Shown here one piece after another: positions 40,440 through 58,873 of a stretch of 64,000 bases of DNA. The DNA comes from an uncultured Eubacteriales bacterium (GTDB lineage Bacteria > Acidobacteriota > Aminicenantia > Aminicenantales > Aminicenantaceae). Where the stretch lies: NCBI GenBank assembly GCA_964410125.1, contig CAYPGQ010000005.1:21395-85394 (forward strand), in the 5' to 3' direction. Positions within the stretch are counted from its first letter, which is position 1. Each line of letters opens with the position of its first letter. Below the pieces are notes generated by a model, which was given only the letters and a program-made list of their open reading frames with translations, made no database searches and had not been told where the DNA came from. A program made the translations under genes and the position numbers.

Positions 40440-43159
40440 ACTCCCCCATATTTTTCTGCTCTTATTCTGAATGCTTCTTCTCCACCTTCCATAATATTTT
40501 TTACATCTGCCCTAATATCTTCTTTATCAATAGAGCCTTTGTTATTAATAACGCACCTTTCATTTTTAGTCTCTAAAACAAGAACCAATTCAGAGTCTCC
40601 TAAGACAGGGATGTTCGCATTATGTGTAGCAATAAATAATTGTCTTTTCCCCTTTATTTCTCTAAGGATTTTCACTACGTCCTCGTATATAAAACGGTTA
40701 TCAAGGTCCTCTTCAGGCTGGTCAAGAACAACAATCCTATCCTCTTGAGCAAATAGAAGCAATAATAAGGCAGTAGCTTTTTGACCAATAGAAAGTTTAT
40801 TAATTAATTTATATTCTTCATTCACTTTCAAAAATATTTCAATTTTGTCCTCGGGAAAAAAAGTTTCAAGCTCATAAAGTCTTTCGGAATCTTTAAACCA
40901 TTCTAATATTCTACTGGACATTGCCTGAGTGAGATTGAATTCTTCACGCAATTTCTGCTCATTACCCTTGATATATTGGGAAAGCAGAAGACCATCGGTA
41001 ACTTTATTGGGTGATTTAACCAACGCTTCAATAGCATCGCTTGAAACTTTTGAGCCTTTTAATAAGTTTTTTAAATCTTCCATAAAGTTGTCTCTTTCTT
41101 CTTCATATTTCACCTCAATTTTGAGTCTTCCTTTTAAGGCATCGTTTATTTTTTCAAGTTGTTCTTTTCTTATATTAAAAATATCATGCCTCTTCTTACC
41201 TATTTTATTCTTCGATTTCTCCCTATCATTTTCCAATTTTTCAATTTCCATTTCTAGCCTTATTAATTCTTCAATTAACGGTATTAACTTTGCCCTTTCC
41301 TTAGTCAATCTTTCGAGTTCGTCTGGTTTAAGTCCTTTCTCGGCCAATTCTTTTTTTATTTTTTGAATTTTTGTTTCTACTTTTTTCTTTTTTTCTAACC
41401 ATTCAGCATACAAGCCTTCAATACTTTTTCTGGTCTGGTCTGTTGTCTTGGAAAGCTGTTTTTTACTTTGCTCAAATGCTCTTTTAATTTGACTTATCTC
41501 TCCAGCTACCTTTTCCAGTATAAATTTATTTTCACTCTTGCCTCTCTTTAAATTATTTTCTAAATAGTTTAGTTCGGATGCAGATTCATCAAAAAAGAAA
41601 AGCATTTTTTCGTTTATTCCATCAAGTTTTTCAATTGCATCTTGTAATTTTTCTTCATCATCTACTATGTTAGTCCACCTTCTGAGTCTTTCTTCTACTT
41701 TCATACCTTTATAAACTTTTATTCCTGCTTCTATTCCCTTTAATCTTTGCTCATACTCTTCCCTTTTTCTCGTCTTTTCTTTAAGAGCTAAAAGCTTTCT
41801 TCCATTTTCTCTTAATTGTTCAATTAACCTCTTGAATTCCTCATGTAAATGCCTTATCCTCTCTCCTATTAATTCATCAATTAATTGGAGTTGAAAAGTA
41901 GGGGTAATAGAAAGAAAATAGAGTTCCTTTTGACCTATTATAATCGGATATTTTGCTTCTTCGAACAAACTCTGTATAGAAAAACCTGTCTTCACACCAC
42001 TTTCATCAATAATTTCTGTATCTTTCCCTATTGTCCTTTTTATCTCGAATTCCTTTTTCTCTTTTCCATAATATCTTTCAATAAAGACAGAAAGCTCCCC
42101 TCCACTTCCAACAACACTCTCTACAAAATCCATTCGGAAAGATTTATCTGCATAAATTGGTAAATCCATAACATATCGCATAGTTTCTATGATAGCCGAT
42201 TTACCCACACCCCTTCCTCCAATAAATGTATTTAGTTCAGGATTGAATAAAATTTCTATATCCCTCAGAAAAGTTGAGCCATTGATTAGTATCTTTGATA
42301 TTCTATTATGATAAAAAGAAGGACATTCATAAGTCTTCACCCTTACTTCTGGGTCGTGTAGAGCTATTTTTAAAGCACCAATGTTAAAAGAACTTAATTT
42401 ATAATATGTGGTTCTTAATTTACCATCCCTCTTTTTAGTGCCTATATCGTCAAGACTTTTAGGGTCAGTATTTTCAAGGATTGCTATTTTTTTAAAATAA
42501 TCAGATGGAAGTTCATTTGTAGATATAAGTTTATTTTTTCCTTCCTCAGAGATATATTCAATAGCATCAGGCTTTACATTCATCAAATACTTTGCAGATT
42601 GGGAAGGATTATAAGTATGAAGAAGTCCTTTATCATTTTCTAGGTGTGGAAATACAACCAAACATTTATATTTTTCTCGAATTTTACTTATCAACTTTTC
42701 CAGTTCTAATTCACTTTCAATATCTCTATGTTTTCTTCCGTCAACTAAGGATTTTTGTGGATTCTTGTCTAAACTGTGTAGAAATGTATTTAAACCTTTA
42801 ATATCCACATTTTGCTCAAAAATTAACAACAAATGAAGACCATATTTCCCACTTAATTTTAATGAAAGCTCAACTCCTGGAAATATTACAATTCCTTTAT
42901 CTTTAGCCTTATTCTTTATTAACTCAAACCAATCCTTTCTCAATCCGTTATAATCTGTAATAGCTCCTATCTTAATCTGCGCTTCTTGTATTTTCTTTAT
43001 ATATTCTTCTACTAATTTTTCACACTCGTTATTGGAATCTAAATTAATCCCTGGTGGTAATGTAAGACTTTCTACACCTGGAGAATGCAGATGTAAATCT
43101 GTCTTCACCCAATTTGCCCCATTATAACTTTTGTCATTCATAGTAATTAACTCTTTCAT
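40436..43159 (-). CDS. PHP-domain phosphoesterase fused to a Rad50/SMC-like ABC ATPase with a long coiled coil
   Basis: N-terminal DLHLHSPG and FPGVELSL PHP motifs. Walker A IGGRGVGKSAII at about residue 316. A coiled coil of about 350 aa. C-terminal signature SIGQKATALLLLLFA, Walker B VVLDQPEEDLD and H-loop IATHN. Confidence 0.5.
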   Translation of the reverse strand: MKELITMNDKSYNGANWVKTDLHLHSPGVESLTLPPGINLDSNNECEKLVEEYIKKIQEAQIKIGAITDYNGLRKDWFELIKNKAKDKGIVIFPGVELSLKLSGKYGLHLLLIFEQNVDIKGLNTFLHSLDKNPQKSLVDGRKHRDIESELELEKLISKIREKYKCLVVFPHLENDKGLLHTYNPSQSAKYLMNVKPDAIEYISEEGKNKLISTNELPSDYFKKIAILENTDPKSLDDIGTKKRDGKLRTTYYKLSSFNIGALKIALHDPEVRVKTYECPSFYHNRISKILINGSTFLRDIEILFNPELNTFIGGRGVGKSAIIETMRYVMDLPIYADKSFRMDFVESVVGSGGELSVFIERYYGKEKKEFEIKRTIGKDTEIIDESGVKTGFSIQSLFEEAKYPIIIGQKELYFLSITPTFQLQLIDELIGERIRHLHEEFKRLIEQLRENGRKLLALKEKTRKREEYEQRLKGIEAGIKVYKGMKVEERLRRWTNIVDDEEKLQDAIEKLDGINEKMLFFFDESASELNYLENNLKRGKSENKFILEKVAGEISQIKRAFEQSKKQLSKTTDQTRKSIEGLYAEWLEKKKKVETKIQKIKKELAEKGLKPDELERLTKERAKLIPLIEELIRLEMEIEKLENDREKSKNKIGKKRHDIFNIRKEQLEKINDALKGRLKIEVKYEEERDNFMEDLKNLLKGSKVSSDAIEALVKSPNKVTDGLLLSQYIKGNEQKLREEFNLTQAMSSRILEWFKDSERLYELETFFPEDKIEIFLKVNEEYKLINKLSIGQKATALLLLLFAQEDRIVVLDQPEEDLDNRFIYEDVVKILREIKGKRQLFIATHNANIPVLGDSELVLVLETKNERCVINNKGSIDKEDIRADVKNIMEGGEEAFRIRAEKYGGV

Positions 43160-45198
43160 TTTATCTTCACCTTCAAAACTTTATTTGTGTCATTCCCAAA
43201 CACATCCACAACTTTTGTCATTATCTGATATTCCCCTGCCTCTTCGTATTTGTGTCTAGCTTCATACTCTACTTTTGGATTCTTCTTCATCCTGAAACTC
43301 TGCCATTGATTATGAAAAGTATCGCCTTTGTAACCCCAGTCAATCGCCCAGTAGTCTATGAGCTCTCTTGAATCCTTTACCTTACAAGCGATTTCTGCAA
43401 GCTCCGCAGTTGGTGCAAGCTGAAAGTCTGTGATTTTCAGTTCTACTTCTTCCTTTTTCATTTTTGTTTCAATCTCCAAATAGGCAACTTCTGGGAATCT
43501 CACATATTTAGACAGTTCTTTTTCAATAACATCATCCCTTATTTTCAATAGTTGCAGGTCGAAACCCACTAAAGAAGATTTGATTTCATTCACTGATGGT
43601 ATTTGAACCAATTTCAAATCAACTCCGTTTTTCTTTGCTAATTCTTTTGCCAGCTCATTTACCTCATAACTCCACTCCCAGCCCAAAACATCTGCCTTAT
43701 TGAAATTATTGCTTTTACATTCAATTACAACCTTCTCAACTTCTTCCATCGTAACAGGAGCGTTCAAAGGACCAACATGTACTGCCCTCTCTCCTTTCCT
43801 TCCATGCAAATATCTAAACCCTGTTAGAGGTTGAGATTGATAGAGTTTGAGCATAAAAGCGAGGTATTCATCCTCTCTTTCCTGCCAGTAAACTGTTTCA
43901 TAATTTCCGATATTCCAGAGTTCAAAAGGTTTTGCTGGCTTTTCATAATTCTTTTTGTTTTCATCTTGTAAATCCTTTGAATTGTGAATATCTAAAAGCC
44001 TCTTTCTTGTAATTTGAATCGCAAACTTGGATAAATCAGAGCCTATCCATCTTCTACCGAGTTTCTCTGCAACCGCTAAAGTTGTGCCGGAACCGCAGAA
44101 GAAGTCAGCTACAATATCGCTTGGGTTAGAAGATGCAAGAATGACGCGTTTCAGGAGAGCTTCGGGTTTTTGAGTATCGAAGTCTAAACGCTCTGCACTG
44201 TTTGCTGAAATCGGAGCAACTTCATCATCTTTCCAAAGGTCCCCCAAGTAATTGCCTGCTTTTTCATCCAAGTATCTCTTTATCCTTGGGAGGCCGGATG
44301 ACGTAAAAATAATTTGCCCTTCGTCCATGGCTTTGTTAATCTTTTCTTGGTCCCAAATCCAATGTTTACCCGGTGGCGGATACAATAGCTTATCTCCGAA
44401 ATAACGTGGCGGGCCGCTTCCTTTCTGTGTAAAATCGAAAGAACCGTATCTCCGTCCGCTTTCCTCCTCTACATATGGGTAAACCTCCTCATCTTTTTCT
44501 CCTCTAATAAATTGTGGGTTGAAAATAGCACTGTTAGACTTTGAGTATATTAAGAGCATGTCCTTAACGTTACTGAAGAATTTGCTCTGGACTTTTGCAG
44601 CAGTCAGTTTGCGCCAAGTGATTTCATTTCTAAAATTCTCATACCCAAAAATTTCATCCATCATTACCTTAACATAATGTCCCACATGCCAGTCTAAATG
44701 CACATAAATAGAACCATTCTCAGCCAATAACCCCCTAATCAAAACCAATCGTTCGTACATATACTTGAGATAAGAAGCAATGCCACCGCTCCATGTATCT
44801 TTGTATGCTCGCTCTTCAATTATAGACGGCTCTTTTTCTATTCTCTCGTCTCCGAGTTTTGTTCTAATGGTAAAATCTGCTCCAGTAAAAAAGGGTGGGT
44901 CAATATATATCAGATTTATCTTACCAGCCCAGCCCTGCTTTATTAGAGAACTCATCACAAGCTTGTTATCCCCCCAGATGAGTTTGTTTTTCCAGTCCTT
45001 TGAATAGTTCTCAGGATACTCATTCTCCGGGAATAGTGAAACTGTATATCCTCCCTTAATTCTAGGTTTATTTACTGTTTCCACTACTTGAAAGGGAAGA
45101 TTTGGTTTCTCAACAGGTATCTTTTCCCCTTTCTCATATTTATCATATTTTTCTTCCCAAAGCAGCTCCACATATTTTTTGTTATGTGCCATATTCAT
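43156..45198 (-). CDS. Type III R-M Mod subunit (beta-class N6-adenine DNA methyltransferase)
   Basis: Motif IV IYIDPPF precedes motif I FFCGSGTT, which is the beta-class order typical of Mod proteins. Length 680 aa. The stop overlaps the next gene by 4 nt. Confidence 0.75.
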   Translation of the reverse strand: MNMAHNKKYVELLWEEKYDKYEKGEKIPVEKPNLPFQVVETVNKPRIKGGYTVSLFPENEYPENYSKDWKNKLIWGDNKLVMSSLIKQGWAGKINLIYIDPPFFTGADFTIRTKLGDERIEKEPSIIEERAYKDTWSGGIASYLKYMYERLVLIRGLLAENGSIYVHLDWHVGHYVKVMMDEIFGYENFRNEITWRKLTAAKVQSKFFSNVKDMLLIYSKSNSAIFNPQFIRGEKDEEVYPYVEEESGRRYGSFDFTQKGSGPPRYFGDKLLYPPPGKHWIWDQEKINKAMDEGQIIFTSSGLPRIKRYLDEKAGNYLGDLWKDDEVAPISANSAERLDFDTQKPEALLKRVILASSNPSDIVADFFCGSGTTLAVAEKLGRRWIGSDLSKFAIQITRKRLLDIHNSKDLQDENKKNYEKPAKPFELWNIGNYETVYWQEREDEYLAFMLKLYQSQPLTGFRYLHGRKGERAVHVGPLNAPVTMEEVEKVVIECKSNNFNKADVLGWEWSYEVNELAKELAKKNGVDLKLVQIPSVNEIKSSLVGFDLQLLKIRDDVIEKELSKYVRFPEVAYLEIETKMKKEEVELKITDFQLAPTAELAEIACKVKDSRELIDYWAIDWGYKGDTFHNQWQSFRMKKNPKVEYEARHKYEEAGEYQIMTKVVDVFGNDTNKVLKVKIK

Positions 45199-45358: not shown

Positions 45359-46087
45359 CTATATTCCTCCTAAAAATGACTTTCTTACCTTATCATTTTC
45401 AAGGAGGTTTTTTGCTTTGTCTTCAAAGGCAATTTTGCCTATTTCAAACACATAGCCTCTATCTGCATATTCTAAAGCCATTCTCGCATTCTGCTCAACA
45501 AGGAGAATGGTTGTTCCATCTTTATTAATCTCTTTTATCTTCTCAAATACAGTATTCACATAATTCGGAGAAAGTCCCAGTGACGGTTCATCCAATAAAA
45601 GCAGTTTTGGTTTTAACATCAGGGCCCTACCAATAGCAAGCATCTGTTGTTCACCACTGCTTAATGTTCCTGCTCTTTGTCTCTGTCTCTCCTTAAGAAG
45701 TGGGAATATGCTGAATACCTTATCAATATATTCTTGAAGGGTTTTTTTATTACTTCTCGTGTATGAGCCCATTTCCAGATTCTCTAAAACGTTCATTGAA
45801 GTAAAGACCCTTCTTCCTTCTGGCACCAGACAAAGTCTTTTCTCAACTAACTGATACGGCTGCTTACTATTTATGTTTTCTCCTCGATATAAAATCTCTC
45901 CCGACTTAGGTTTCACCAGACCACAAATTGCCTTTAAGGCGGTAGATTTACCAGCACCGTTTGGACCTATCATTGCCACGATTTCTCCCTCACTTATATT
46001 GAGAGAAATGTCATCCAGAGCAAGGACAGTATCGTAATATACTGTTAAGTTTCTTACCTCAAGAAGCACTTTCACGCCTCCTGCCAA
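45359..46087 (-). CDS. Branched-chain amino acid ABC transporter ATP-binding protein (LivF-like)
   Basis: Walker [10 protein letters not shown], signature LSSGEQQ, Walker B LLLLDEPS. Confidence 0.8.
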
Positions 46088-46841
46088 GATAGGCTTCTAT
46101 AACCTTATCATTTCTGGTAATCTCTTCTGGAGGTCCTTCAGCAATCTTTTGACCATAGTTTAATACAATGACATTATCAGAAATTCCTGTTACTACTTTC
46201 ATATCATGCTCAATGAATAGAATCGTCTTGCCCTTTGTTTTTAATTTCTTTAGCACATCCAGTATCTTAACTCTCATATTAGGGAAAACCCCGGCTGTTG
46301 GTTCATCCAATAAAAAGAGTTCGGCTTCCATTGCCAATGCTCGGGCTAATTCAAGCAATCGTCTCTGTCCATGAGATAAATTCTGTGCAAGTTCTTCTTT
46401 TTTGTCTATAAGACCTACCAATTCAAGATATTCCAGAGCCTTCTCTCTATTTCTCTGCTCCTCGTCCTTCATAACCTTCGATTGAAGAAGCGCAGATATA
46501 AGTCTCTCACCTTTATCATATTTAGTTGCAAGCAACATATTCTCCATGACCGTAATCTGTGGGAAAAGCCTGATATTTTGAAATGTCCGTGAGATGCCTA
46601 ATTTAGCTATCTTGTAAGGTGGCAGATTAATAATCCTTTTATTTCTAAAATATACATCTCCAGATTGAGCATTGTAGAATCCAGAGATTATATTAAACAC
46701 TGTCGTCTTACCTGCACCATTAGGACCAACCAGGGCGTTTATAGTGGCTGGTTCAATAGAGAAGTCCAGGTTGTCTACTGCAACAATTCCATCAAATTCT
46801 TTAGAAAGATCTTTAACTTCTAATAACATCTCATCACTCAC
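46059..46841 (-). CDS. Branched-chain amino acid ABC transporter ATP-binding protein (LivG-like)
   Basis: Walker [10 protein letters not shown], signature LSHGQRR, Walker B LFLLDEPT. Confidence 0.8.
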
Positions 46842-47707
46842 TTGAATTGATACCTTCCCATTATGCCTTGTGGTCTCTTGATCATAAGCACAACCAAAAG
46901 CAATCCATATAGCATCTGTCTCATCGGAGCTGCAATTGATGACGGCATACCTAGAAATCTAAGAAGTTCAGGGAAGACCACAAGAATTACTGCTCCCGCT
47001 ATAGAGCCTGATATACTTCCCATTCCGCCAAAAATAACCATAAGGAGGATGGTAATAGATTCCATTACAGTAAAGCTCGATGGATCAATGAAGGTTATGT
47101 AATGGGCATAAAGGCTCCCAGCAATCCCAGCAAAGAATGCTCCAATAATGAAAACCAATATCTTGTGCTTGGTTGTATTTTTTCCTAATGCCTGTGAGGC
47201 AATTTCATCTTCCCTGATAGATCTCAATATTCTGCCAAAAGGGGAATTCACTACTCTTCTTACAACAAAGATAGTAATTATCACAAAAACTAAAACCAGT
47301 AATAGGTAGGACCATATTTCTGACAAGTGAAAACCGAAAACGGAAAACCCAGGTATTCCAGGAAGTCCCATTGGACCTCTTGTAAGAGATACCCAGTTCT
47401 TAGCAATGGAGTAAATAATTATCCCTAATCCGAATGTTGCCAGAGCAAGATAATCTCCCTTCAGTCGCACTGCCGGATAGCCTATTACAATGCCTGAGAG
47501 TGCCGCTACACACGCTCCTATCGACAATCCTATCCAGGGAGATAAATCCATATTTAATGCAAGGAGACTTGATGTATATGCCCCTATACAAAAAAAGGCT
47601 GCATGACCCAGTGCTGGTAGGCCTGTATATCCCACAATGAGATTAAGGCTCAGGGTAAGAATTATGTAAATCCCAGCAATAATAAGTATATGTAAGAGAT
47701 ACTCCAT
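46838..47707 (-). CDS. Branched-chain amino acid ABC transporter permease (LivM-like)
   Basis: Polytopic permease. Overlaps the adjacent genes by 4 nt. Confidence 0.7.
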
Positions 47708-47711
47708 AGCC

Positions 47712-48590
47712 TTAAATTGTGTCCTTTTCTGTTTTGGTACCTAAAAAACCCCATGGTCTTATCAAAAGAAAAATTATAAGGATAACAAACGCTATACAAT
47801 CCTTCCATCCGGCTGATATTTTCCAGATACCAAGATTCTCAGCTAATCCCAGAAAGAATCCACCCAGCACTGCACCTGGAATACTACCGATGCCACCGAT
47901 AATAGAGGCAATAATTCCCTTCAAGAGAGCGCTGAATCCCATTGTTGGTTCAATATTTGTTTCAAAGGAAATAAGTATCCCAGCAGCACCGGCTAATGCA
48001 GAGCCTATGGCAAATGAAGTCAAGACTATCTTCTCGGGATTTATACCAACAATATTTGCCGCTATGGGATCATCAGACACCGCCCTCATTGCCTTGCCGA
48101 GCTTTGTCTTCTGGATAAAAAGCAAGAGTAGTATCATAAGAATGATTGAGACCGCTAAAATTAAAATCTGGATATCAGTAATCACGGCGCCAAGAAAATG
48201 GTGTCCTTCTTTAATAGGGCCGGTTCTTATTGTAAGAATCTGTGCTCCATAGAGCAGTTGAATCAGGTTTTGAAGGAAGATAAAGACACCGAATGATGCA
48301 AGGAGAAAAATCAGGTTAGATGCATTCTGTTTGCGAAGGGGATGATAGACGAATCTATCAATGGCTATACCTAAAAGTCCTGCTAAAATTATCGCTGAAA
48401 AAAAAGAAAGGACGAAATTGAGGTGCAAGGAAATAATTAGTGTATAAGCAAAATACGCACCGGTCATATAAACCACCCCATGAGCAAAGTGAAAAAACTT
48501 TACCGTACGATAGATTACAGTAAAGCCTATAGCAATGAGGGCATAAATGCTGCCTGCGATTATGCCGTTAAGTATTAATTGTTGTATCAT
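47712..48590 (-). CDS. Branched-chain amino acid ABC transporter permease (LivH-like)
   Basis: Polytopic permease immediately upstream of the LivM-like gene. Confidence 0.7.
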   Translation of the reverse strand: MIQQLILNGIIAGSIYALIAIGFTVIYRTVKFFHFAHGVVYMTGAYFAYTLIISLHLNFVLSFFSAIILAGLLGIAIDRFVYHPLRKQNASNLIFLLASFGVFIFLQNLIQLLYGAQILTIRTGPIKEGHHFLGAVITDIQILILAVSIILMILLLLFIQKTKLGKAMRAVSDDPIAANIVGINPEKIVLTSFAIGSALAGAAGILISFETNIEPTMGFSALLKGIIASIIGGIGSIPGAVLGGFFLGLAENLGIWKISAGWKDCIAFVILIIFLLIRPWGFLGTKTEKDTI

Positions 48591-48868
48591 TTGTTTTTAT
48601 TATATATATTTTTATTCTAAAAGCCTTTCGTCTTTGTGTATCTGCTAGACAAATTTAATTTGTGTCTAATTGTGACACCCCGAATAATGAGAATGTAAAT
48701 ACTATCAACTATTACCCCATTAAGTAGAAGTTGTGAAATCATAGTTTATACTACCTTACTTTTCCAATAAAAACTTTAAATTCCATTGGTTAACCTTTTG
48801 TCAAATACAAAGACTGGAGCCCATCCTTCCCATACTCTCATTACACCATCCTGTCACTTCTGAATAAG

Positions 48869-50785
48869 TCATTGGTGAAGGTTTCTTAAGGGAAAAATCC
48901 TCTCGAAAAACTTATTGAAGACAGTTATTTGGTAAAGGGAGTACAATTCTGCTTTTTCAAGCTCTCCTGTCCAGTCTGATTGGAAAGATTCGTTGTGTAG
49001 CACACTTTTTTCAGGCAGTGCCAAAACAAAGGATTCATCTGCAACTAAAATTGAGTACACCTCTTCCCAGCCCGCGCGAGAAAAAAGCAAAGAAATGAAG
49101 AGACGCATCCACTCTTTTTCTTTGTGCCCAAAGTATAAAAGGAAAATAGCATGGGAATCTTTCAAATGTGCGTATAGAGGATTTCTTGTGGACTTATTGC
49201 CAATATCCATACTTAAAAAATCCATCGATAGATAGTGAGGAGGATCGGCTATAATAAGATTGTAATCTCCGTAATAAATATCGTTGGGTTCTTCTAACGG
49301 TGGTTGCTTTTTATAGTGATTTGTCAACGAAAATATATCAGCAGGCACGATATGAGCTGCACTTGAGACTTTCTCATTATACGGAAAAGGATTTTTATCT
49401 ATACTAGCAATGTTCAGCTGTTCGTCTGATGATCCCCGTAGGAAACACTCATTTAGACCTGTTCCGGAAAAAAGACTAAGTATCTTTAGATTATTTTTAT
49501 TTTTAATTGCTTGTACTACAGATAAGGAGATATATCCTAAAAGCGGAGAGGGGCCGACTTGCTCTGAATATCTATAAACCAAATCTAGCTCGTTTTCCCT
49601 CAATTGTACACCAAGTTTCTCAAATTTCTTTCTGTAGATCCCCAAAACAGAATCATCAGAGACTTCATTCTTTGTCCATTCATATAAGTTAACATCCATA
49701 GCTTCAGTCACCTCAATCGTTGGCGAGATAAAAACATCTACCCTTATCTTTAGTTTATCCACCGGAATTACATTTGTCTTTTCGGTAACTTTCAATTCTT
49801 TACATTGAAGAGCCTCCAAATAACCTTTCATCCAACCATTTAAGTATTCCTCTATTTTATTTAATATCATCGCTGAGTCACTATATAGAAAATTGTATCC
49901 ATCTTTGTTAGAGATATATAGTCTTATTATTAGAACATACGCTGGATGCTTCGGTGAATTTTTGTTACCTATTCGCTCTACCACAAATAAATTGTGTCCA
50001 ATATTATCAACGCTGACTATATCCCTCTTATTCCGAACTTTTATCATATTCTCAACATATCGGTTGGCTTCTCCTTTAAGATGATTAACAAAGTCTTTAT
50101 TGGATATGCAGAAGCGTTTATAGCTCTTTTTATATTCCAAACAAAAATTATATGTAGAGTGAATAACTTCCATAATCCTTTTACATAGAATCTTAAGCTC
50201 CTCATCATACTTATACATATCCGTATATTCTTCCTCTAAAACAAGGGCAATTCCCCCAAGAGTCCCATGTGAATAAATCGCAAATTTAAAGTTTTCATAT
50301 TTTTCCTTTTGAACAGTTAAAAAAGAATACGCTGTAGAAACCACACTATGCTTATAAGTCAAATCTTGAATATCACCAACCAGTTCAAAGTTTTTCCATG
50401 TAGATGGAGATTCCAATTTAAATCCTGCCGGAATGGGTTTTTTTATGCCAAAATGTCTAAGTTTTTCTTCGCTCCTCAGTGCAATATGTTTGTCCCAATA
50501 AATTTTTAAGAAGTCCGCGTACTTTTTTTGGGTTTCTTCCTTTATATTGCCAGTGTAAACGAGTTTTCTATCAGACCTTTTGTAATGGATCCCTCCTATA
50601 GTAATTCCTATAATTTTAAACTTCTTTTGTATAGATTCCCATCGTTTTTCCGCGATGCATTTAACTGGATTGTCGGTTTTATTATTATGCGACAACAAAT
50701 CTCTCCTTATTGTATCCACTATCGCACTTTCGAAAGAAAGGAGAGCTTCTTTTCTTAATTGTAGTTTTTGGTCATTGACACCCAT
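48869..50785 (-). CDS. Hypothetical 638-aa protein with a C-terminal amino-methyltransferase-like domain (FSGTG ... DPPH)
   Basis: The C-terminal third carries LSLFSGTGLNE (motif I-like) followed about 80 aa later by NLIIADPPHY (a (D/N)PPY-type motif IV, gamma-class order). The N-terminal 400 aa resemble nothing I recognise. Confidence 0.4.
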   Translation of the reverse strand: MGVNDQKLQLRKEALLSFESAIVDTIRRDLLSHNNKTDNPVKCIAEKRWESIQKKFKIIGITIGGIHYKRSDRKLVYTGNIKEETQKKYADFLKIYWDKHIALRSEEKLRHFGIKKPIPAGFKLESPSTWKNFELVGDIQDLTYKHSVVSTAYSFLTVQKEKYENFKFAIYSHGTLGGIALVLEEEYTDMYKYDEELKILCKRIMEVIHSTYNFCLEYKKSYKRFCISNKDFVNHLKGEANRYVENMIKVRNKRDIVSVDNIGHNLFVVERIGNKNSPKHPAYVLIIRLYISNKDGYNFLYSDSAMILNKIEEYLNGWMKGYLEALQCKELKVTEKTNVIPVDKLKIRVDVFISPTIEVTEAMDVNLYEWTKNEVSDDSVLGIYRKKFEKLGVQLRENELDLVYRYSEQVGPSPLLGYISLSVVQAIKNKNNLKILSLFSGTGLNECFLRGSSDEQLNIASIDKNPFPYNEKVSSAAHIVPADIFSLTNHYKKQPPLEEPNDIYYGDYNLIIADPPHYLSMDFLSMDIGNKSTRNPLYAHLKDSHAIFLLYFGHKEKEWMRLFISLLFSRAGWEEVYSILVADESFVLALPEKSVLHNESFQSDWTGELEKAELYSLYQITVFNKFFERIFPLRNLHQ

Positions 50786-50801: not shown

Positions 50802-51824
50802 TTACTTCAAATGTGGGTAGGAATCAGTATATTTCCATGCAGGATCGTAAAAGAACATTAGAAATATTTTGTTCTTAACCTTCTTAGCCATTTTAAGACA
50901 TGCCATTAGGGTCAAGCAGGAGCTTCTACCAACGAGTTGTTCTTCTATTCCATGCAGAAGTTTTTCACCTTCTTTATAAGTGTCTTGTGGGAGTAGAATA
51001 AAATCATCTATTATATCTAAATTAATATCTAATTTCTCTGGAGGCAAACCGAATGGCGCGATTCCGTATATCTCATGAATAAGTTTTTCGCGGTCTAACA
51101 CTTCCCCTTTTGCTTTTAGTGTTTGAATCATAGGAAGCTCAGAAGGTTCCACAACAATAACTTTTTCTGAATTCAGAGTTGCCTTCAGATATTCTCCACT
51201 CCCACTTATAGTGGTACCTGACCCTACAACTCCTACATGAAAGTCAGGCATTACACCATAATTCTTTTTAATAATAAACAAAGTATCCTGCATAAGTTTA
51301 TGAAAAGCCTTTTTAGCACTTGGGCTTATTTTAGTAACACAGTATAGCCGATGAGGATTCTCTCCGATTTTTCCGCCCTTTTTTACTTTGTCCTCATTTA
51401 AAATTTCCTCTAACTTTTTGACATAGCCTTTTGCATATTCACCAGCAGGAGAAAAGACTACTTCGCAACCATATTCTTTTATCTGCTCTACTCTTGCCTG
51501 AGGGGTGTCTTTGTGGGTAATGACTGTGCACTTTTTGTATCCCAGTAAGGTCGCACATTTTGCAAATGCGGCTCCTGCATTCCCCGTGCTGGCTTCTATC
51601 ACTGGTGTAATACCTGCTACAATATATCCTTTCTCCTCAGCCTCCTGAAACAAAATTGGATAAATCCTGTCAAATGTGCTCCCCGTAGGATTCTTCCATT
51701 CTTCAATTGCGAATATCCTGTTTCTATTAGGTATTTCTATCTTCTTGATTTCATATACCGAGGCGCGAATTACACTTATCTCTTTATACAGTTTTTCTCT
51801 ACTTTCAGGTAACATTGTCTTCAC
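50802..51824 (-). CDS. Cysteine synthase-fold (PLP fold type II) protein lacking the Schiff-base lysine
   Basis: Aligns to the CysK/threonine synthase signature across NPTGSTFDRI (canonical NPSFSVKCRIG / NPTGSFKDRG), ASTGNAG (TSGNTG) and GVVGSGTTISG (GVGTGGT). The PLP lysine position is Phe. It overlaps the SBP gene by 4 nt. Confidence 0.6.
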   Translation of the reverse strand: MKTMLPESREKLYKEISVIRASVYEIKKIEIPNRNRIFAIEEWKNPTGSTFDRIYPILFQEAEEKGYIVAGITPVIEASTGNAGAAFAKCATLLGYKKCTVITHKDTPQARVEQIKEYGCEVVFSPAGEYAKGYVKKLEEILNEDKVKKGGKIGENPHRLYCVTKISPSAKKAFHKLMQDTLFIIKKNYGVMPDFHVGVVGSGTTISGSGEYLKATLNSEKVIVVEPSELPMIQTLKAKGEVLDREKLIHEIYGIAPFGLPPEKLDINLDIIDDFILLPQDTYKEGEKLLHGIEEQLVGRSSCLTLMACLKMAKKVKNKIFLMFFYDPAWKYTDSYPHLK

Positions 51825-52942
51825 TCTCCCACTTCTACAAATTGTCCATTTTTTATCGTTTTGAGCATTACTTGTGCTATGATATCTCCGTTCTTATCAA
51901 AACTTATAGGCCCGATCGCACCCGGAAATTTTTTAAGTGAGTACAAACCTTTTTTTATATCCTCAGAACTCCCGCTAGAAGTGGCAATTACTTCATACAA
52001 TACTCTAATTGCATCATATCCAAGAGCAGAAAAGAGATCGGGAACTTCACCATATTTCTTTTGGTACTTTTCAGAGAAGCTTTTTGCTACCTTTAATGTT
52101 TTCGGAGTGAATTTCTGCATCGTGTATATAACGCCTTCAGCTGCATTACCAGCTATTTTTATCACTTCCGGGGATTCAATCCCTATAGTGCTAAAAATTC
52201 TATCTTGAAATCCCAATTCCTTTGCCTGTCTGAGAAAATGAGCCATTTCTAATGAATGACCGATAAGATAAACTCCGTCATAGTGAGATTGTCGTAACTT
52301 TGCAATAACTGTCCGAAAATCAGATGTTCCCTGCTCATACCCCTCAGAATAACCGATGCTACCTCCCACTGACTCATATTTTTTCTTAAAAACCTCAAAG
52401 TTACCTGCACCATAGTCTGTATTCACAAAAATCACAGCCAATTTGCTTATCTTATATGTCTTAATAGCTTCTTCCGCCATTGCCTCAACTTCTAACTTTC
52501 CACTTAATCTTAATCTAAAAATATTCTCTCCGGCTTCTGTAATAAGTGGACTGGTGGCACCTGAAGATAAAAAGACAACCTTTTCTTGCTCCGCTATTGG
52601 TGCACAGGCCATAACAATAGAACTTCCCACCCCCCCGGTTACCGCCGCCACTTTCTCCGCTCGAATCAGCTTGTTAAAAGCACTTACCCCTGCCTGAGGG
52701 TTTGTTTGAGAATCTTGAACAATAAGTTCTACCTCTATAGGCTTATTCTGATTAATCTCTTCTACTGCAATTTGCATTCCCTTGTAGTTTCGTTCGCCTT
52801 GTGGAGCTAGTGGGCCTGTTAAGGGTAATATCACCCCAATCTTTATCTCCCCTTGCTCTTTCTTTGTCTGGGTGACAAAGAACACGATGGCTAAAGCCAC
52901 AACCACCACGACACCGATTCCGATCCATATGTTCCGTTTCAT
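51821..52942 (-). CDS. ABC transporter substrate-binding protein (LivK / Peripla_BP_6-like)
   Basis: N-terminal TM/signal, then IKIGVILPLTGPLAPQG typical of branched-chain amino acid/amide binding proteins. Confidence 0.75.
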   Translation of the reverse strand: MKRNIWIGIGVVVVVALAIVFFVTQTKKEQGEIKIGVILPLTGPLAPQGERNYKGMQIAVEEINQNKPIEVELIVQDSQTNPQAGVSAFNKLIRAEKVAAVTGGVGSSIVMACAPIAEQEKVVFLSSGATSPLITEAGENIFRLRLSGKLEVEAMAEEAIKTYKISKLAVIFVNTDYGAGNFEVFKKKYESVGGSIGYSEGYEQGTSDFRTVIAKLRQSHYDGVYLIGHSLEMAHFLRQAKELGFQDRIFSTIGIESPEVIKIAGNAAEGVIYTMQKFTPKTLKVAKSFSEKYQKKYGEVPDLFSALGYDAIRVLYEVIATSSGSSEDIKKGLYSLKKFPGAIGPISFDKNGDIIAQVMLKTIKNGQFVEVGE

Positions 52943-53019: not shown

Positions 53020-53562
53020 TCAATGATCCTGGGCCATAATTCCGACTTTTCTCAACTGTTCCTTAAGATATTGCTCACTCCTGTTCAATATACCCTTGAA
53101 GTGTTTCCGAACCACAATATCAAATTTAGGACAAAGTTGACTTTCCAAATCCTTCATCCGGTTAGGCCTTAAACTTTCAATCAACATCTCTCTTGTTGGG
53201 ATTTCATCCATCGGGATTTTCGCAAGAATCCAGTTTTCAAGAGGGGCAAGACGTAAGACTGCTATAACAGGTTGGTAGCCATCGTGAGTACGGTCACGAA
53301 GAGCCTGCACATTATCAGTGGTGAGAGGAATTGATAATTTCTCTGTGGTTTTTACCTCAACTGCAAACTTTTGATTAGATTCCGATGTTATATCAATATC
53401 AACTCCTTGCACGCCTCGTTCTACAATATTAGTAAAGCCCATTTCATGGAAGCTGAGAGCCAGTAGTTTTTGTACAATTTTGCCAAAAGGTCCAGATGGT
53501 GTACCTTTGATTCCAAACTTTTTCTGCAACTTCTGTAAAAGTTCAAGAGTTTCTACTTTCAT
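53020..53562 (-). CDS. Small PD-(D/E)xK-fold nuclease-like protein
   Basis: GVDIDITSESNQKFAVEVKT matches the D-x(n)-E-x-K restriction-endonuclease-like core. Its start is 3 nt after the upstream ATPase stop. Confidence 0.4.
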   Translation of the reverse strand: MKVETLELLQKLQKKFGIKGTPSGPFGKIVQKLLALSFHEMGFTNIVERGVQGVDIDITSESNQKFAVEVKTTEKLSIPLTTDNVQALRDRTHDGYQPVIAVLRLAPLENWILAKIPMDEIPTREMLIESLRPNRMKDLESQLCPKFDIVVRKHFKGILNRSEQYLKEQLRKVGIMAQDH

Positions 53563-53564
53563 AA

Positions 53565-55742
53565 TTATATTTCCTTCGAAATTTTCGGGCCGGAATCCGG
53601 TGCCCAGTCCGAAAGCTTATATATAGTTTTGACTTTGGTAATATTATCCTTTAAAAGCTGTTGCATTTCAGCATCCATAGTAGAGACTGTAATGTTTTTT
53701 ATATCGCTGAGTTCATTAAAGATTTCTACAAGACGAGCTTTTTGCTGTGAATCTAAACTTTGCGATGAGTCGTCCATCAAGATAAATCCGAGAGGATGAG
53801 AATCTCCAGATGCTTTAGTCAAACCTAAGAAAATAGACAAAGCAAGGCTATTCAGGTCTCCTTGACTTAGAACAGGAATGGGTCTCTTGCCGTCTTGGTC
53901 TTCGAAAATATAAAAGTTTCCGCCAGTTTTTTTATCCTCATCTACTTTAATATTGAGTGTTTGAAAAGCCGGGTTGTTGGTTATTCTACGAAAGTAGCGG
54001 CCAATTGCACTCCTGGCTGAATCAATTTTTTCTTCTGCTTCCTTTAGCATACAAGATTTGATAATTTTACTAAGTTCTTCCACGTCTCTTACTAGATTTG
54101 AGACATCGGTTCTGATTTTCTCTTGTTTCTGGTATTCATTGGTTTTTTGAATTTGGTTTATTTCTTCGAGTTTATTCTTAAATAGCAAAATATCATAAAG
54201 TAAGTTCATTATATCTGTTTTTTCTAAAATGGCGTCAATTGTAACTTGCTTATTCTTAATAGCATCTGCAATCTCTTTTAAACGTGAATCAATGTTTTTT
54301 ATTTCTATGGATAATATTGCAGCAGGATCATCCTTATCAGTCAACTCTTTATGTAGAAATTCTGAGATATTATTGATTGCCTTCTTTAATTCCTCTTTTT
54401 CTCTTCTAGCGTCTTTCTCTAAGTGGACAAGTTCCTTCTTCAATCTTTCAAAATCGGTTTTCTTTTTGTCTAATTCTGCCTGTTGTTTTTCTAACTCCTG
54501 CACTTGGGCTGTAATTTTTTCCTCCCATTCCTTTCGTAAATGCTCAAGCAAATTGGACACCTTTTCTCCGCATAAGGGACAAATGTCAGCATCAGAGGGA
54601 GCAGCTAATTTCAGAATGGAAATACCTTCTTCAATCAATTTCGCTTTCGGGCTTATTCGCTTAATTTCTTTATTAATAGCATCAATCTCTTCAAATGCTT
54701 TTCTTATTTTATTGTCGATTTCATCTTTGTTGCCATTTTCTTGTTCAAAATCCTGAAGTTCCTTCTTCTTTGATTTAAGATTCAGGTATTGAGTCTCATA
54801 TTTACTTTTGAATGAAACCATTTCGCTTCTCTTCCTTTGTTTTTCTGATTGTTCTTTCACGTCGGGAGATTCTGCCCAAAGACGGCTGCACTCATTCTTA
54901 ATATCGGTAATAAATGACTCGGTATTTTTCCAATCAGAAGGAGGAGAAATTGCCGTTGTTGTAAGTCCCAATAGTCGGGCAAAGTTACCAATGTCTTTTA
55001 TGGTTGATTCTACCAGTTCAAGCAGTTTATTTTCGTTTAATTCTTCTTCACTCAGTCCCTTCTCTTTGGCTTTATCTCTTTTATTATCCAGGTCTTTTTG
55101 CCTTATCTTTATCCCTTCTTGTACACGGGTCTGAAATTTATTAAATTCTTCTGTAAGCTCTTTCTGAAGCTTTAAGACGTCAGACTTCTTAATACCATCA
55201 AGAATATTCCGATAATCTGATAAACCTAAGAGGCGGTCCATTACAGCACTCTGTTCGCTTGGTTTTTGTATCACAAAGTCGTGGATAGTCTCCTGGTGTT
55301 GATATACGGTAGTAGCAAAGTCTTTGAATGAAACCCGAAGTAACTTTGCTATTTCTTGGTCACCCTCGTCTCCTTCTTTCTCTGTTCCATTTGGCAAAGA
55401 TATTTTTATACTTTTGCCTTTTTTGCCTTTTCCCTTGGCTTCGGCTCGAGTAATAGTAAAGATTCCCTGTTCTCCCTCGATTTTCAAATTTACCTTGGCC
55501 TTCTCAGAATTATCATTCACAACTCTCCAGGCCATCTCACCTGTGCCTACACGTTCACGAATTCCAGATTTTTCACCAATGCACTCATCTCCATACAAAC
55601 ACCATTCAATTGCATTTAATACACTACTCTTACCTTGATGATTTCCCCCATGTAGTAAAGTAACGGGATTTTCGAATTCGATAGAGGTTTTTTGAGTAAA
55701 TCCTCTGAATCCTTCTATTTCTACTTTTTTAATCTTTAACAT
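53565..55742 (-). CDS. Compact Rad50/SbcC-like ABC ATPase with coiled coil and a CxxC zinc hook
   Basis: N-terminal EIEGFRGF...HGGNHQGKSSVLNAIEWCLYG (Walker A). A central coiled coil with ICPLCGEK at its midpoint. C-terminal signature LSQGDLNSLALSIF and Walker B FILMDDSSQSLD. Confidence 0.6.
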   Translation of the reverse strand: MLKIKKVEIEGFRGFTQKTSIEFENPVTLLHGGNHQGKSSVLNAIEWCLYGDECIGEKSGIRERVGTGEMAWRVVNDNSEKAKVNLKIEGEQGIFTITRAEAKGKGKKGKSIKISLPNGTEKEGDEGDQEIAKLLRVSFKDFATTVYQHQETIHDFVIQKPSEQSAVMDRLLGLSDYRNILDGIKKSDVLKLQKELTEEFNKFQTRVQEGIKIRQKDLDNKRDKAKEKGLSEEELNENKLLELVESTIKDIGNFARLLGLTTTAISPPSDWKNTESFITDIKNECSRLWAESPDVKEQSEKQRKRSEMVSFKSKYETQYLNLKSKKKELQDFEQENGNKDEIDNKIRKAFEEIDAINKEIKRISPKAKLIEEGISILKLAAPSDADICPLCGEKVSNLLEHLRKEWEEKITAQVQELEKQQAELDKKKTDFERLKKELVHLEKDARREKEELKKAINNISEFLHKELTDKDDPAAILSIEIKNIDSRLKEIADAIKNKQVTIDAILEKTDIMNLLYDILLFKNKLEEINQIQKTNEYQKQEKIRTDVSNLVRDVEELSKIIKSCMLKEAEEKIDSARSAIGRYFRRITNNPAFQTLNIKVDEDKKTGGNFYIFEDQDGKRPIPVLSQGDLNSLALSIFLGLTKASGDSHPLGFILMDDSSQSLDSQQKARLVEIFNELSDIKNITVSTMDAEMQQLLKDNITKVKTIYKLSDWAPDSGPKISKEI

Positions 55743-58796: not shown

Positions 58797-58873
58797 TGGT
58801 CGGGACGGGCGGATTTGAACCGCCGACCCCACGCACCCCAAGCGTGTGCGCTACCAGACTGCGCCACGTCCCG
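58797..58873 (-). tRNA. tRNA-Pro (anticodon GGG), CCA encoded
   Basis: The minus-strand sequence CGGGACG-TG-GCGC-AGTCTGGTA-GCGC-A-CACGC-TTGGGGT-GCGTG-GGGTC-GGCGG-TTCAAAT-CCGCC-CGTCCCG-A-CCA folds into a canonical cloverleaf with anticodon GGG and G37. Confidence 0.8.

Follow-up and report, generated by a model that had tools for sequence, protein, structure and literature searches.

The locus analysed here has its closest described counterparts in the LivJ/K-HMGF importer of branched-chain amino acids, in the O-acetylserine sulfhydrylases CysK and CysM, and in the amino-directed methyltransferases (MTases) that act on DNA, on rRNA and tRNA, or on protein. CysK can serve other proteins as a binding partner or activator, as in its complexes with CysE and CdiA-CT. 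A CysK/CBS-type module that has no PLP-binding lysine and is non-catalytic has been described at the N-terminus of C. elegans CBS-1 (PMC3316156). Among the MTases, a T. thermophilus homologue of Trm14, a family that makes m2G6 in tRNA, carries NPPH as motif IV and provides a precedent for His at the fourth position of this motif (PMC3177210). A search of the literature yielded no paper describing an operon of substrate-binding protein (SBP), CysK-like protein, slot gene and LivHMGF, none on a lysine-less bacterial CysK-like family and none on a MTase with the DPPH motif. Such an operon was identified in the window (the whole stretch of 64,000 nucleotides that was analysed), and its features, including those of the slot gene, here called X, are collected in Table 1.

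Table 1. Features of the importer operon in the window; residue numbers refer to X unless stated otherwise.
Feature	Positions	Strand	Basis
LivF-type ABC ATPase	45359..46087	(-)	ORF and family match
LivG-type ABC ATPase	46059..46841	(-)	ORF and family match
LivM-type permease	46838..47707	(-)	ORF and family match
LivH-type permease	47712..48590	(-)	BPD_transp_2
livH 5' remnant, 28 codons, within the 278-nt gap after X	48659..48742	(-)	tblastn with LivH: 54% identity over 28 aa, E 1.3e-6
Gene X, 638 aa	48869..50785	(-)	sole ORF at these coordinates; ATG start
Class-I (Rossmann-fold) SAM-MTase-like domain, residues 401-600	48986..49585	(-)	PDB profile, Foldseek, AF2
LYFGHKEKEW, residues 550-559, located where predicted strand beta5 ends; Y551, H554 and E556 are family-specific invariants	49109..49138	(-)	alignment and AF2 secondary structure
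Motif IV NLIIADPPHY (D-P-P-H), residues 509-518	49232..49261	(-)	aligns with IIIANPPYV of M.BseCI
Motif I LSLFSGTGLNE, residues 436-446, FxGxG SAM-binding loop	49448..49480	(-)	aligns with VLDPACGDG of M.BseCI
VGPS, residues 410-413, with invariant G-P-S, preceding motif I	49547..49558	(-)	alignment
Conserved core-N subdomain, residues 212-400, always upstream of the MTase-like domain	49586..50152	(-)	hhalign, alignment
Residues 1-211, limited to the operon-linked subfamily, mostly basic	50153..50785	(-)	missing from distant P0011, P0013, P0015, P0017 and P0018
CysK-like fold-type-II PLP-fold protein, 337 aa, without Schiff-base lysine	50802..51815	(-)	Pfam PALP (PF00291) 2.1e-34
Phe48 codon of the CysK-like protein, at the PLP-binding Lys position of CysK	51672..51674	(-)	alignment with solved CysK
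HAAT-family (LivJ/K-like) SBP with N-terminal membrane anchor or signal	51821..52942	(-)	Peripla_BP_6 1.8e-59

The best PDB relative of the SBP is the amino-acid-binding protein 3td9 (1.7e-53), followed by LivJ and LivK, and the presence within a single operon of a Peripla_BP_6 SBP, a pair of BPD_transp_2 permeases and a pair of ABC ATPases identifies the system as a HAAT importer. The genes are closely spaced, with about 5 nt between the SBP gene and that of the CysK-like protein (PALP) and 16 nt between the stop of the latter and X, which is preceded by a ribosome-binding site of the Shine-Dalgarno-like sequence GAAGGAG. All seven distinct operons with a full-length or split relative of X were found to contain the HAAT SBP, the CysK-like protein, X and LivH/M/G/F, as far as the contigs reach, and the operon genes recur with relatives 30-58% identical (L009, L010/L019, L013, L014, L015 and the P0002 contig). 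The gene order is SBP-PALP-X-LivHMGF, except for L010/L019, in which LivHMGF comes first. According to the preliminary description, X is flanked by a CysK-like protein and by the ABC importer, and indeed the gene of the former lies directly upstream and importer genes lie on both sides, but these are not incidental neighbours, the partnership being kept in seven independent operons. X thus travels with an operon for amino-acid ABC import as a fixed passenger that can nevertheless be exchanged, and the constant partner in this operon is the lysine-less CysK-like protein.

The single minus-strand ORF of X agrees with the 638-aa protein originally proposed at 48869-50785. Its family is tiny, with 18 representatives in 1.84 billion proteins, and its relatives share only 22-40% identity. 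No relative was found in 185,579 species-representative genomes or in collections of plasmids, phages and viral contigs, and searches of X against Pfam, NCBIfam and PADLOC gave no match. A phmmer search of X against PDB sequences gave noise only, and the word-indexed homologue search returned X alone when X was the query, and X plus P0002 and nothing else when an alignment of 17 sequences was used. The ORF in the window is intact and is present in identical copies on 16 contigs from many samples; the closest relative is frameshifted, and in two samples the break falls within a (TA)7 tract. Distant relatives of the X core occur as fusions with REC domains, GGDEF-like domains and guanylate kinase, with sigma-54 regulators alongside; their surroundings are of signalling type, with no transporter context.

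The family to which X belongs is very rare and unannotated, and its C-terminal domain has a true SAM-MTase fold. A profile of 13 sequences of the C-terminal module, when searched against PDB, gave the gamma-class N6-adenine MTase M.BseCI at the top (E 5.7e-6), with an alignment spanning motif I through NPPY/DPPH, and next the RsmD-like HI0767 (0.002), YccW (0.003) and HemK (0.007). As in class-I enzymes, the acidic residues D463 and D483 align with the corresponding SAM-binding motifs (II and III) of M.BseCI and HI0767. The AlphaFold (AF2) model of X, based on an alignment of only 17 sequences, reached pLDDT 78.5 and pTM 0.85 and shows the beta1-alphaA-beta2...beta7 pattern, i.e. the seven-stranded alpha/beta fold of the class-I SAM-MTase superfamily; the single-sequence model (pLDDT 37.6) was unusable. 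Foldseek with the model against PDB gave, at E<=1e-3, exclusively class-I MTase-fold enzymes (RlmJ at the top with 2.9e-5; RlmCD, Bud23 and HemK), and that against BFVD likewise gave MTase-fold matches only. Thus the outcome that had been named as fatal to the MTase assignment, chance motifs with no similarity to the fold, was checked by both the PDB profile and Foldseek, and both match MTases. The top BFVD match was a spermidine-synthase-like aminopropyl transferase. Spermidine synthases carry DxxDP in the corresponding place; this identity was set aside because the motif following strand beta4 of X is ADPPH, that of amino-MTases.

The motifs of X are arranged in the order X-like (VGPS), I, II, III and IV, which is the order of gamma-class amino-MTases; the claim that motif I precedes motif IV in gamma-class order holds (residues 436-446 and 509-518). 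By positional analogy, VGPS would occupy the place of motif X of amino-MTases. Relatives carry DLFSGSG as motif I, and motif IV reads DPPH in most of the family, with DPHH as the variant of P0007 and P0016. Seven residues, F439, G441, D463, D483, D514, P515 and H517, vary little or not at all across relatives. Of these, D514, P515 and H517 are identical in all six full-length relatives and reach at least 90% conservation over all 17 members, and H554, E556 and E584 are conserved to a similar degree. Conservation of D514, P515 and H517 and of H554, E556 and E584 at 22-40% identity indicates selection on an active site. The motifs are beyond chance, as the seven residues are kept across such divergent relatives and the family profile aligns them with motifs I-IV of solved MTases. 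The segment LYFGHKEKEW is predicted, from the topology of the MTase fold, to adjoin the active-site region.

No curated family was matched above its threshold. Members of the X family show sub-threshold similarity to N-directed MTases (PrmC 9e-6, PrmB 1.7e-5, RsmC/D, PrmA and N6-adenineMlase). Among the 17 members the best scores to DNA-MTase Pfam families, below threshold and from one member each, were 0.0018 for N6_N4_Mtase, 0.026 for D12 and 0.044 for Eco57I, and X of the window gave no match to N6_Mtase, N6_N4_Mtase, MethyltransfD12 or Eco57I. Also below the cut-offs were Cons_hypoth95 (0.0012; 19 against 24 bits) and MTS (9.7e-5; 22.5 against 23 bits) for RsmD/RsmC, TIGR00095 for RsmD (16.7 against 117.5 bits), and TIGR03534 for HemK/PrmC (25.3 bits for the best member against 199.1), the motif being DPPH instead of NPPY. 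As only residues 601-638 (about 40 aa) follow strand beta7, X has no C-terminal target-recognition domain (TRD). In five of six members the charge of the MTase domain ranges from acidic to neutral.

The N-terminal region of about 400 aa, described from the beginning as having no assignable identity, indeed gave no match in Pfam, NCBIfam, PADLOC or PDB sequences; a profile of seven N-terminal sequences found nothing in PDB at E<=10, so that no RNA-binding domain such as THUMP or PUA was matched by sequence. Whole-model Foldseek lists are dominated by the MTase domain, not by this region, and a test for internal repeats was negative. The core-N subdomain carries the motifs VVERIGNK, LIIRL, NFLY, KIEEYLNGW and RxDV, with R271, G273, R288, L289, F299, L300, I311, L315, G317, D350, V351 and P355 being invariant, and an hhalign comparison of the N-terminal profile with P0011/P0013 gave a probability of 97.3% (E 2e-11) over residues 212-325. 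Residues 1-400 have a net charge of +6 to +20 in five of six members, with pI of about 9. A beta-hairpin with invariant GG, together with the GGDEF domains of distant relatives, had prompted the idea of a degenerate GGDEF/palm domain, which was rejected by hhalign (probability 0.2%).

For the CysK-like partner, the plain label given in the preliminary description is incomplete, since the catalytic lysine is missing. In the alignment with solved CysK, the sequence NPTGSTFDR of the partner stands against GGSVKDR, with Phe48 opposite the Lys, and the cysK model scores the partner at 108 bits, its cut-off being 351. The partner has the PALP fold, the Asn loop and the Gly loop of CysK/CysM and lacks the Schiff-base Lys of SxKDR; within its subfamily, Lys is replaced by Phe, Tyr or His in all members (five X-linked orthologues and about 55 clusters), and STGNAG (Asn loop), GSGT (Gly-rich phosphate loop) and the Ser contacting the pyridine N are retained. 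Loss of the Schiff-base Lys makes it more likely, as judged from the sequence, that this protein holds or senses a ligand than that it is a cysteine synthase. Lysine-less PALP proteins also occur alone, with neither transporter nor X (L023, L031 and others), indicating that PALP function does not depend on X.

The slot between PALP and livH is occupied by different genes in different operons. In sister operons with backbones 66-76% identical, unrelated proteins, Y and Z, are found in the place of X, so that three unrelated families share one slot (hhalign probability of X against Y or Z, <=1%). Both Y and Z are transmembrane proteins; the 2TM segment at the N-terminus of Y gives a weak, non-significant hint of SLATT_5 (E 0.015), and Z matched in PADLOC only Csx19 at 0.015. 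Inspection of the sequences gave no C-terminal CysE/CdiA-like docking tail common to X, Y and Z. The livH 5' remnant after X belongs to a 5' end different from that of livH in the window and represents a recombination scar. LivH of the window is a mosaic, being 67% identical to LivH of Y-type operons and 37-39% identical to that of other X-type operons.

In the wider neighbourhood, the operon lies between a type III-like restriction-modification (R-M) cluster and a gene for Lamassu-like LmuB, in a low-GC island beside tRNA-Pro; neither a tRNA-derived direct repeat nor an integrase was found bounding this island. The earlier statement that X has no adjacent restriction partner is correct for the immediate neighbours, but a complete type III-like R-M cluster (43156-45198 and downstream) is located 3.7 kb away. 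This cluster has its own Mod and does not need X. No nuclease partner was found at any X-related locus examined, other X-type loci such as L015 have no defence neighbourhood, and none of X, Y, the PALP protein and P0003/5/8/18 was matched by PADLOC-DB v2.

Our preferred reading, held tentatively, is that X is a soluble SAM-dependent amino-directed MTase, a dedicated but exchangeable accessory of the amino-acid importer module, and that it most likely N-methylates a non-DNA target linked to the module. X would combine the class-I Rossmann fold, gamma-type motif order and D-P-P-H as the catalytic motif with a novel N-terminal region of about 400 aa, and would direct its catalytic activity to a nitrogen; the CysK-like PLP-fold protein would be the constant cytoplasmic partner of the module that holds or senses a ligand, and the target might be a protein of the module or else the amino compound that is imported, which the CysK-like protein possibly presents. 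That membrane proteins take the place of X in near-identical backbones speaks against an obligatory step of X on the imported compound. The lone occurrence of lysine-less PALP proteins, the signalling-type surroundings of distant X cores and the small alignment of 17 sequences behind the model also count against this reading. The best matches to nucleic-acid MTases (M.BseCI, RlmJ and RsmD-like) and the basic N-terminus would also fit RNA or DNA binding, so that X could be a base amino-MTase producing m2G or m6A in rRNA or tRNA, or m6A or m4C in DNA, with the N-terminus binding and recognizing the target and the operon linkage reflecting co-regulation instead of a common chemistry. We consider this unlikely. 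A DNA N6-adenine MTase leads and an RsmD-like protein comes second in the sequence matches, the rRNA m6A MTase RlmJ leads in structure, motifs I and IV are of amino-MTase type, NPPH occurs in the tRNA m2G6 MTase homologue, R-M and Lamassu-like genes share the low-GC island, and, as a weak hint, the (TA)7 interruption in the closest relative is reminiscent of the simple-sequence switching known from phase-variable DNA methylases; however, every curated nucleic-acid MTase threshold is missed, neither a TRD nor similarity to an RNA-binding domain was detected, the extreme rarity, with absence from 185,579 species genomes, is unlike housekeeping RNA MTases, and X is strictly linked to the transporter and PALP, gives way to transmembrane proteins in sister operons and has no nuclease at related loci. 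Of the three possibilities put forward at the outset we favour the orphan DNA MTase least, because X lacks a target-recognition domain, no DNA-MTase threshold is reached and related loci contain no nuclease partner; the acidic to neutral charge of the MTase domain in most members also speaks against a DNA MTase. A protein or small-molecule N-MTase and a sensor/effector fusion rank above it.

Exchange at the slot brings in a further unlikely explanation, that SBP, lysine-less CysK-like protein, X/Y/Z and LivHMGF form a sensor-effector system for signalling or for inter-genomic conflict and defence, in which an amino compound would be sensed by importer and PLP-fold pseudoenzyme, with the slot gene as an interchangeable output or effector and X as its SAM-using version. 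The three unrelated families in near-identical backbones, the cassette exchange indicated by the livH remnant and mosaic LivH, the 2TM segment of Y, the signalling fusions of distant X cores, the position between R-M and LmuB genes and the precedent of CysK as a binding partner or activator are in agreement with such a system, but X, Y, Z and PALP are all without PADLOC match apart from the Csx19 value of Z, the SLATT hint is not significant, other loci lack a defence neighbourhood, no shared tail for docking into the CysK-like active site is present, and phages, plasmids and viral contigs carry no relatives of X. A more far-reaching version, which we likewise regard as unlikely, would be an undescribed modular system in which importer and PLP-fold pseudoenzyme serve as a constant chassis for sensing or ligand capture and recombination at the livH 5' end exchanges one effector for another. 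In such a system X would be the SAM-dependent effector, and both its D-P-P-H active site and its N-terminal fold would be new. It is very unlikely that the MTase-like domain is inert, acting only as a sensor binding SAM/SAH or a nucleotide, or that X is a decaying passenger gene in this genome: the frameshift in the closest relative, the change of the motif IV aromatic residue to His and the small, patchy family would suit this explanation, and against it stand the intact ORF identical on 16 contigs, the conservation of D514/P515/H517 and of H554, E556 and E584, and the occurrence of NPPH in a Trm14-family homologue.

If the preferred reading is correct, X defines an unannotated amino-MTase family with invariant D-P-P-H, additional invariant His and Glu residues and a novel partner region of 400 aa, and its target is probably neither the DNA of an R-M system nor housekeeping RNA. 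Likewise, about 55 clusters labelled 'cysteine synthase A' would be mis-annotated, having no catalytic lysine, and may represent a PLP-fold ligand sensor tied to amino-acid importers. An ABC importer operon in which an internal gene is exchanged by recombination would be an unusual architecture, and could reveal a new coupling of transport to modification, regulation or conflict functions. No long-standing question is resolved by this analysis; its value is in a well-delimited and experimentally tractable case with predicted function.

Compared with the gamma-class N6-adenine DNA MTases (M.BseCI, PDB 7qw5; M.TaqI type), X has the same class-I fold, the I-II-III-IV order and the FxGxG motif I, and its (D/N)PPx motif IV aligns residue for residue with IANPPY of M.BseCI, but motif IV has His at its fourth position, outside the (D/N/S)PP(Y/F/W) pattern; X also differs in having an unrelated N-terminal region of 400 aa and no C-terminal TRD, in its location inside a transporter operon with no restriction partner, and in scoring below the Pfam DNA-MTase thresholds. 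With the rRNA and tRNA enzymes RlmJ (m6A2030), RsmD/RsmC (m2G) and Trm14/TrmN (m2G6), X shares the leading structural match (RlmJ), the second sequence match (HI0767) and, in its relatives, a motif I (DLFSGSG) similar to that of RsmD-type enzymes, whereas it scores far below the cut-offs of these families, has no detected THUMP or other known RNA-binding domain, and is a transporter-operon-linked protein rather than a housekeeping one. The protein N-MTases of the HemK/PrmC, PrmB and EEF1AKMT1 types employ a (N/D)PP(Y/F)-type motif on a protein amide or amine; HemK is present in both sequence and fold match lists of X and PrmC is the best NCBIfam similarity of a member, whereas the N-terminal architecture of X is different and its context includes neither release factor nor ribosomal genes.

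The CysK-like partner shares with the O-acetylserine sulfhydrylases CysK and CysM the PALP fold, the Asn and Gly loops and the pyridine-N Ser, at 25% identity to E. coli CysK, but its subfamily has Phe, Tyr or His in place of Lys, an insertion of about 20 aa with the invariant K162, and GRSS for GISS. Like CBS-1, it is a fold-type-II PLP module missing the lysine; in CBS-1, however, Lys is changed to Glu, the PLP pocket is blocked and the module is part of a eukaryotic tandem fusion, whereas the partner retains the other PLP-contacting loops and is a stand-alone prokaryotic protein. All five components of the LivJ/K-HMGF branched-chain importer are present here and in order, with the SBP being closest to amino-acid-binding HAAT proteins, but this SBP has an N-terminal hydrophobic anchor, and two extra cytoplasmic genes, encoding the lysine-less PALP and the variable slot protein, lie between the SBP gene and livH.

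X, the 638-aa protein with the methyltransferase-like C-terminal domain, is encoded by a single ORF (48869-50785, minus strand, ATG start), as the preliminary description had it, starting 16 nt past the stop of the upstream gene and preceded by a GAAGGAG ribosome-binding site. The two motifs pointed out there were located at residues 436-446 (LSLFSGTGLNE) and 509-518 (NLIIADPPHY), and the neighbours were also as described, with the CysK-like gene (PALP) on one side and ABC importer genes around X. No match for X was obtained with Pfam, NCBIfam and PADLOC models or among PDB sequences searched with X alone, and when 5.8 billion clusters were queried by a word-indexed search, X itself was the only one recovered. 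Scanned exhaustively with HMMER, 1.84 billion representatives yielded a family of 18 proteins, including five full-length relatives (30-41% identity), the closest relative in the form of two split ORFs, fragments, and distant proteins sharing with X only residues ~212-600; no relative was found in 185,579 species-representative genomes, PLSDB plasmids, INPHARED phages or IMG/VR contigs. In each of two independent samples (locus L132:1304-1317 and, for sample 3300042731, a JGI contig of 6020 nt), a frameshift within a (TA)7 tract divides the closest relative into ORFs of 309 aa and 335 aa, the window's X having only (TA)3 at the equivalent place; the split may reflect slipped-strand switching, pseudogene formation or an assembly error that recurs.

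The N-terminal region of about 400 aa, previously described as unknown, has no detectable relative and gave 0 PDB matches at E<=10 in a profile search with residues 1-400; it is basic, and no internal repeat was detected in it. A diverged GGDEF domain was considered for the N-terminus and rejected (hhalign 0.2%). The module common to X and the distant relatives P0011 and P0013 begins at about residue 212 (hhalign probability 97.3%), and X is therefore divided into three parts (see the table). The X-core, made up of core-N and the MTase-like domain, is also found in other architectures. P0011 (L016:1496-5566) consists of REC, a GGDEF-like domain (RGDEF), the X-core and guanylate kinase, and adjoins a sigma-54 DNA-binding-domain protein; P0013 (L128:6954-10109) consists of REC, a degenerate GGDEF and the X-core, and adjoins a sigma-54 activator. 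Another X-core protein, P0018 (730 aa; L130:7205-9397), is encoded immediately after a further class-I MTase gene.

Residues ~401-600 form a Rossmann-fold SAM-MTase-like domain with gamma-type motif order. F439 and G441 (motif I), D463 (motif II), D483 (motif III), D514, P515 and H517 (motif IV), together with G411-P412-S413, Y551, H554, E556 and E584, are invariant or nearly so across the family. When a profile of 13 C-terminal-module sequences was searched against PDB, the top match was M.BseCI, a gamma-class N6-adenine DNA MTase (E 5.7e-6; alignment from motif I to IANPPY/IADPPH), followed by RsmD-like HI0767 (0.002), YccW/RlmI (0.003) and HemK (0.007). Several family members also gave sub-threshold Pfam/NCBIfam matches, all covering one and the same region, to Methyltransf_31, MTS, Cons_hypoth95, Methyltransf_15, N6-adenineMlase, PrmC, PrmB, RsmC/D and PrmA; the curated thresholds of DNA, RNA and protein MTase families were not reached by X. 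AlphaFold prediction from the single sequence was unusable (pLDDT 37.6), but with an alignment of 17 sequences it gave a model of pLDDT 78.5 and pTM 0.85, for which Foldseek against PDB and BFVD returned only class-I SAM-MTase-fold proteins, including RlmJ (2.9e-5), RlmCD, Bud23, RlmLK, HemK and spermidine synthase. Since conserved residues, profile matches and modelled fold agree, the motifs are not coincidental. Motif IV is unusual in having His as its fourth residue, though "NPPH" is on record for the T. thermophilus Trm14 homologue (PMC3177210). Gamma-class DNA MTases carry a C-terminal target-recognition domain; in contrast, X extends for only ~40 residues beyond the final strand of its modelled fold, and such a domain is thus absent.

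Features of the window and of X, and gene order at loci of its relatives (P-numbers; L-numbers, metagenomic loci; SBP, LivJ/K-type binding protein)
Feature	Position	Strand	Remark
Type III-like R-M cluster	36737-45198	-	one side of operon; has its own Mod
LivH, LivM, LivG, LivF	45359-48590		downstream of X
X N-terminus	residues 1-211		subfamily-specific
X core-N subdomain	residues 212-400		conserved
X MTase-like domain	residues 401-600
PALP/CysK-like gene	50802-51815	-	upstream of X
Phe replacing Schiff-base Lys in PALP	codon 51672-51674	-
SBP	51821-52942	-	upstream of X
Lamassu-like pair	53020-55742	-	other side of operon
492-aa HNH protein	56758-58236		beside tRNA-Pro, with small HTH and MerR genes
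tRNA-Pro(GGG)	58797-58873	-	end of low-GC stretch, which is packed with defence-type genes
L009 (P0003)			SBP - PALP - X - LivH; contig ends there
L013 (P0006)			SBP - PALP - X - LivH - LivM; contig ends there
L015 (P0008)			SBP - PALP - X - LivH - LivM - LivG - LivF; full set
Split closest relative (P0004 + P0002)			PALP - X-N - X-C - LivH - LivM - LivG; bounded by contig ends
L014 (P0007)			X - LivH; short contig
L010/L019 (P0005)			LivHMGF - SBP - PALP - X

Seven independent X operons, the window's included, were thus collected with X identities of 30-58%, showing that X, the importer and the lysine-less PALP have been inherited together in the long term. The SBP is nearest to amino-acid-binding HAAT proteins (3td9, 1.7e-53, then LivJ/LivK). 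After labelling of the genes by local HMMs, 30 metagenomic loci with lysine-less PALP fell into three contexts, including SBP-PALP-X-LivHMGF and PALP alone (L023, L028, L031 and others), so that PALP occurs without X. X is also replaceable by unrelated proteins: hhalign gave <=1% among X and the proteins Y and Z that take its slot in sister operons, and in their SBP and PALP backbones L009 (X), L020 (Y) and L021 (Z) share 66-76% identity, whereas L009 reaches at most 56% with the remaining X operons. Within the window, X is separated from the intact livH by 278 nt, which include 28 codons left over from the 5' end of a different livH (48659-48742, minus strand; tblastn E 1.3e-6; MISQLLLNGVIVDSIYILIIRGVTIRHK). 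The intact LivH shares 67% identity with LivH of Y-type operons, the closest to it, but only 37-39% with that of other X-type operons. It follows that the slot gene is exchanged by recombination and that the window operon is a mosaic.

The partner PALP carries NPTGSTFDR where CysK/CysM have NPxGSxKDR. In the HMMER alignment its Phe stands against the Lys of GGSVKDR in the solved cysteine synthases 8t2c and 8srt; a MAFFT alignment with E. coli CysK agrees, the HMMER alignment being independent of the E. coli sequence. Phe or Tyr occupies the Schiff-base position in all five X-linked orthologues, and ~55 subfamily clusters (from 5.8 billion proteins) are all substituted, mostly by Phe and in a few cases by Tyr or His; the Asn loop (STGNAG), the Gly-rich phosphate loop (GSGT) and the pyridine-N serine are kept. 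The window PALP scored 108 bits against the cysK model (cut-off 351), and the source label "cysteine synthase A" of several relatives is probably a mis-annotation. Salmonella OASS K41A is said to have been isolated (by Rege et al., in 1996) still carrying amino acids captured in external-aldimine form, and by this analogy a ligand-holding or sensing role of the lysine-less PALP is plausible; alternatively, K162 or K328, invariant lysines specific to the subfamily, might substitute for the Schiff-base lysine. C. elegans CBS-1 likewise includes a lysine-less fold-type-II module, which is non-catalytic (PMC3316156). A second, divergently transcribed lysine-less paralogue adjoins the SBP-PALP-X operon in some loci (L009:1-485, minus strand; L022:4198-5265, plus strand), and stand-alone copies are also found in unrelated surroundings, for instance in L031 beside arginyl-tRNA synthetase.

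The host belongs to Candidatus Aminicenantes, its MgsA being 77-89% identical to that of Aminicenantes MAGs. The window operon lies within a stretch (36700-58873) of 33-40% GC, whereas the first 35 kb have about 47%; for the low-GC stretch around the operon a comparison of 38% against 46.5% was also obtained. No integrase or tRNA-derived direct repeat bounding it was found. The R-M cluster encodes a 680-aa Mod (N6_N4_Mtase; PADLOC MTase_III 7e-107), a 907-aa PHP plus SMC/AAA_21-type ATPase, a 389-aa SLFN/AlbA_2 plus HATPase_c_4 protein and, last, a ResIII helicase of 848 aa whose C-terminus carries a RE_endonuc domain; the second and third of these genes fall outside the standard type III set. 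The Lamassu-like pair begins with a 725-aa SMC-type ATPase (PADLOC LmuB 1.1e-49) that also resembles arcadin-4 and Rad50 in NCBIfam. The protein encoded next, of 180 aa, shows only weak resemblance to Hjc and NOV_C (restriction-endonuclease-like), and no LmuA model gave a match.

We tentatively favour, at somewhat less than an even chance, X as a SAM-dependent N-directed methyltransferase that would serve as an exchangeable accessory of the importer module and act on an amine or protein tied to it, not on R-M DNA. As the main rival stands the reading of X as an RNA/DNA base amino-MTase, to which the best matches (M.BseCI, RlmJ, RsmD-like), the basic N-terminal region and the NPPH precedent point; against it, however, the family is rare, X is tied to an importer operon and has no recognition domain, and membrane proteins replace it in sister operons, and we consider it rather unlikely. 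The importer module might also be a sensor-effector system for signalling or conflict, a reading that we find doubtful; it would be consistent with the changing occupant of the slot, the operon's island setting in the window, a weak hint of SLATT similarity in Y (E 0.015) and the signalling-type fusions or neighbours of P0011 and P0013 (REC, GGDEF-like, guanylate kinase, sigma-54). Sequence and model together show an MTase-fold domain with a conserved active site of amino-MTase type, and that the domain is inert or decaying seems improbable.

The X module is rare, odd and clearly delimited, and bears directly on no long-standing question. A literature search for the X family, the lysine-less CysK-like subfamily and the exchangeable-slot importer operon found nothing. 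The fold of X is already known; new are the X family, marked by the D-P-P-H plus Y/H/E/E signature and by an N-terminal region of 400 aa that is itself novel, the subfamily of lysine-less CysK-like partners, and the importer operon with its exchangeable slot.
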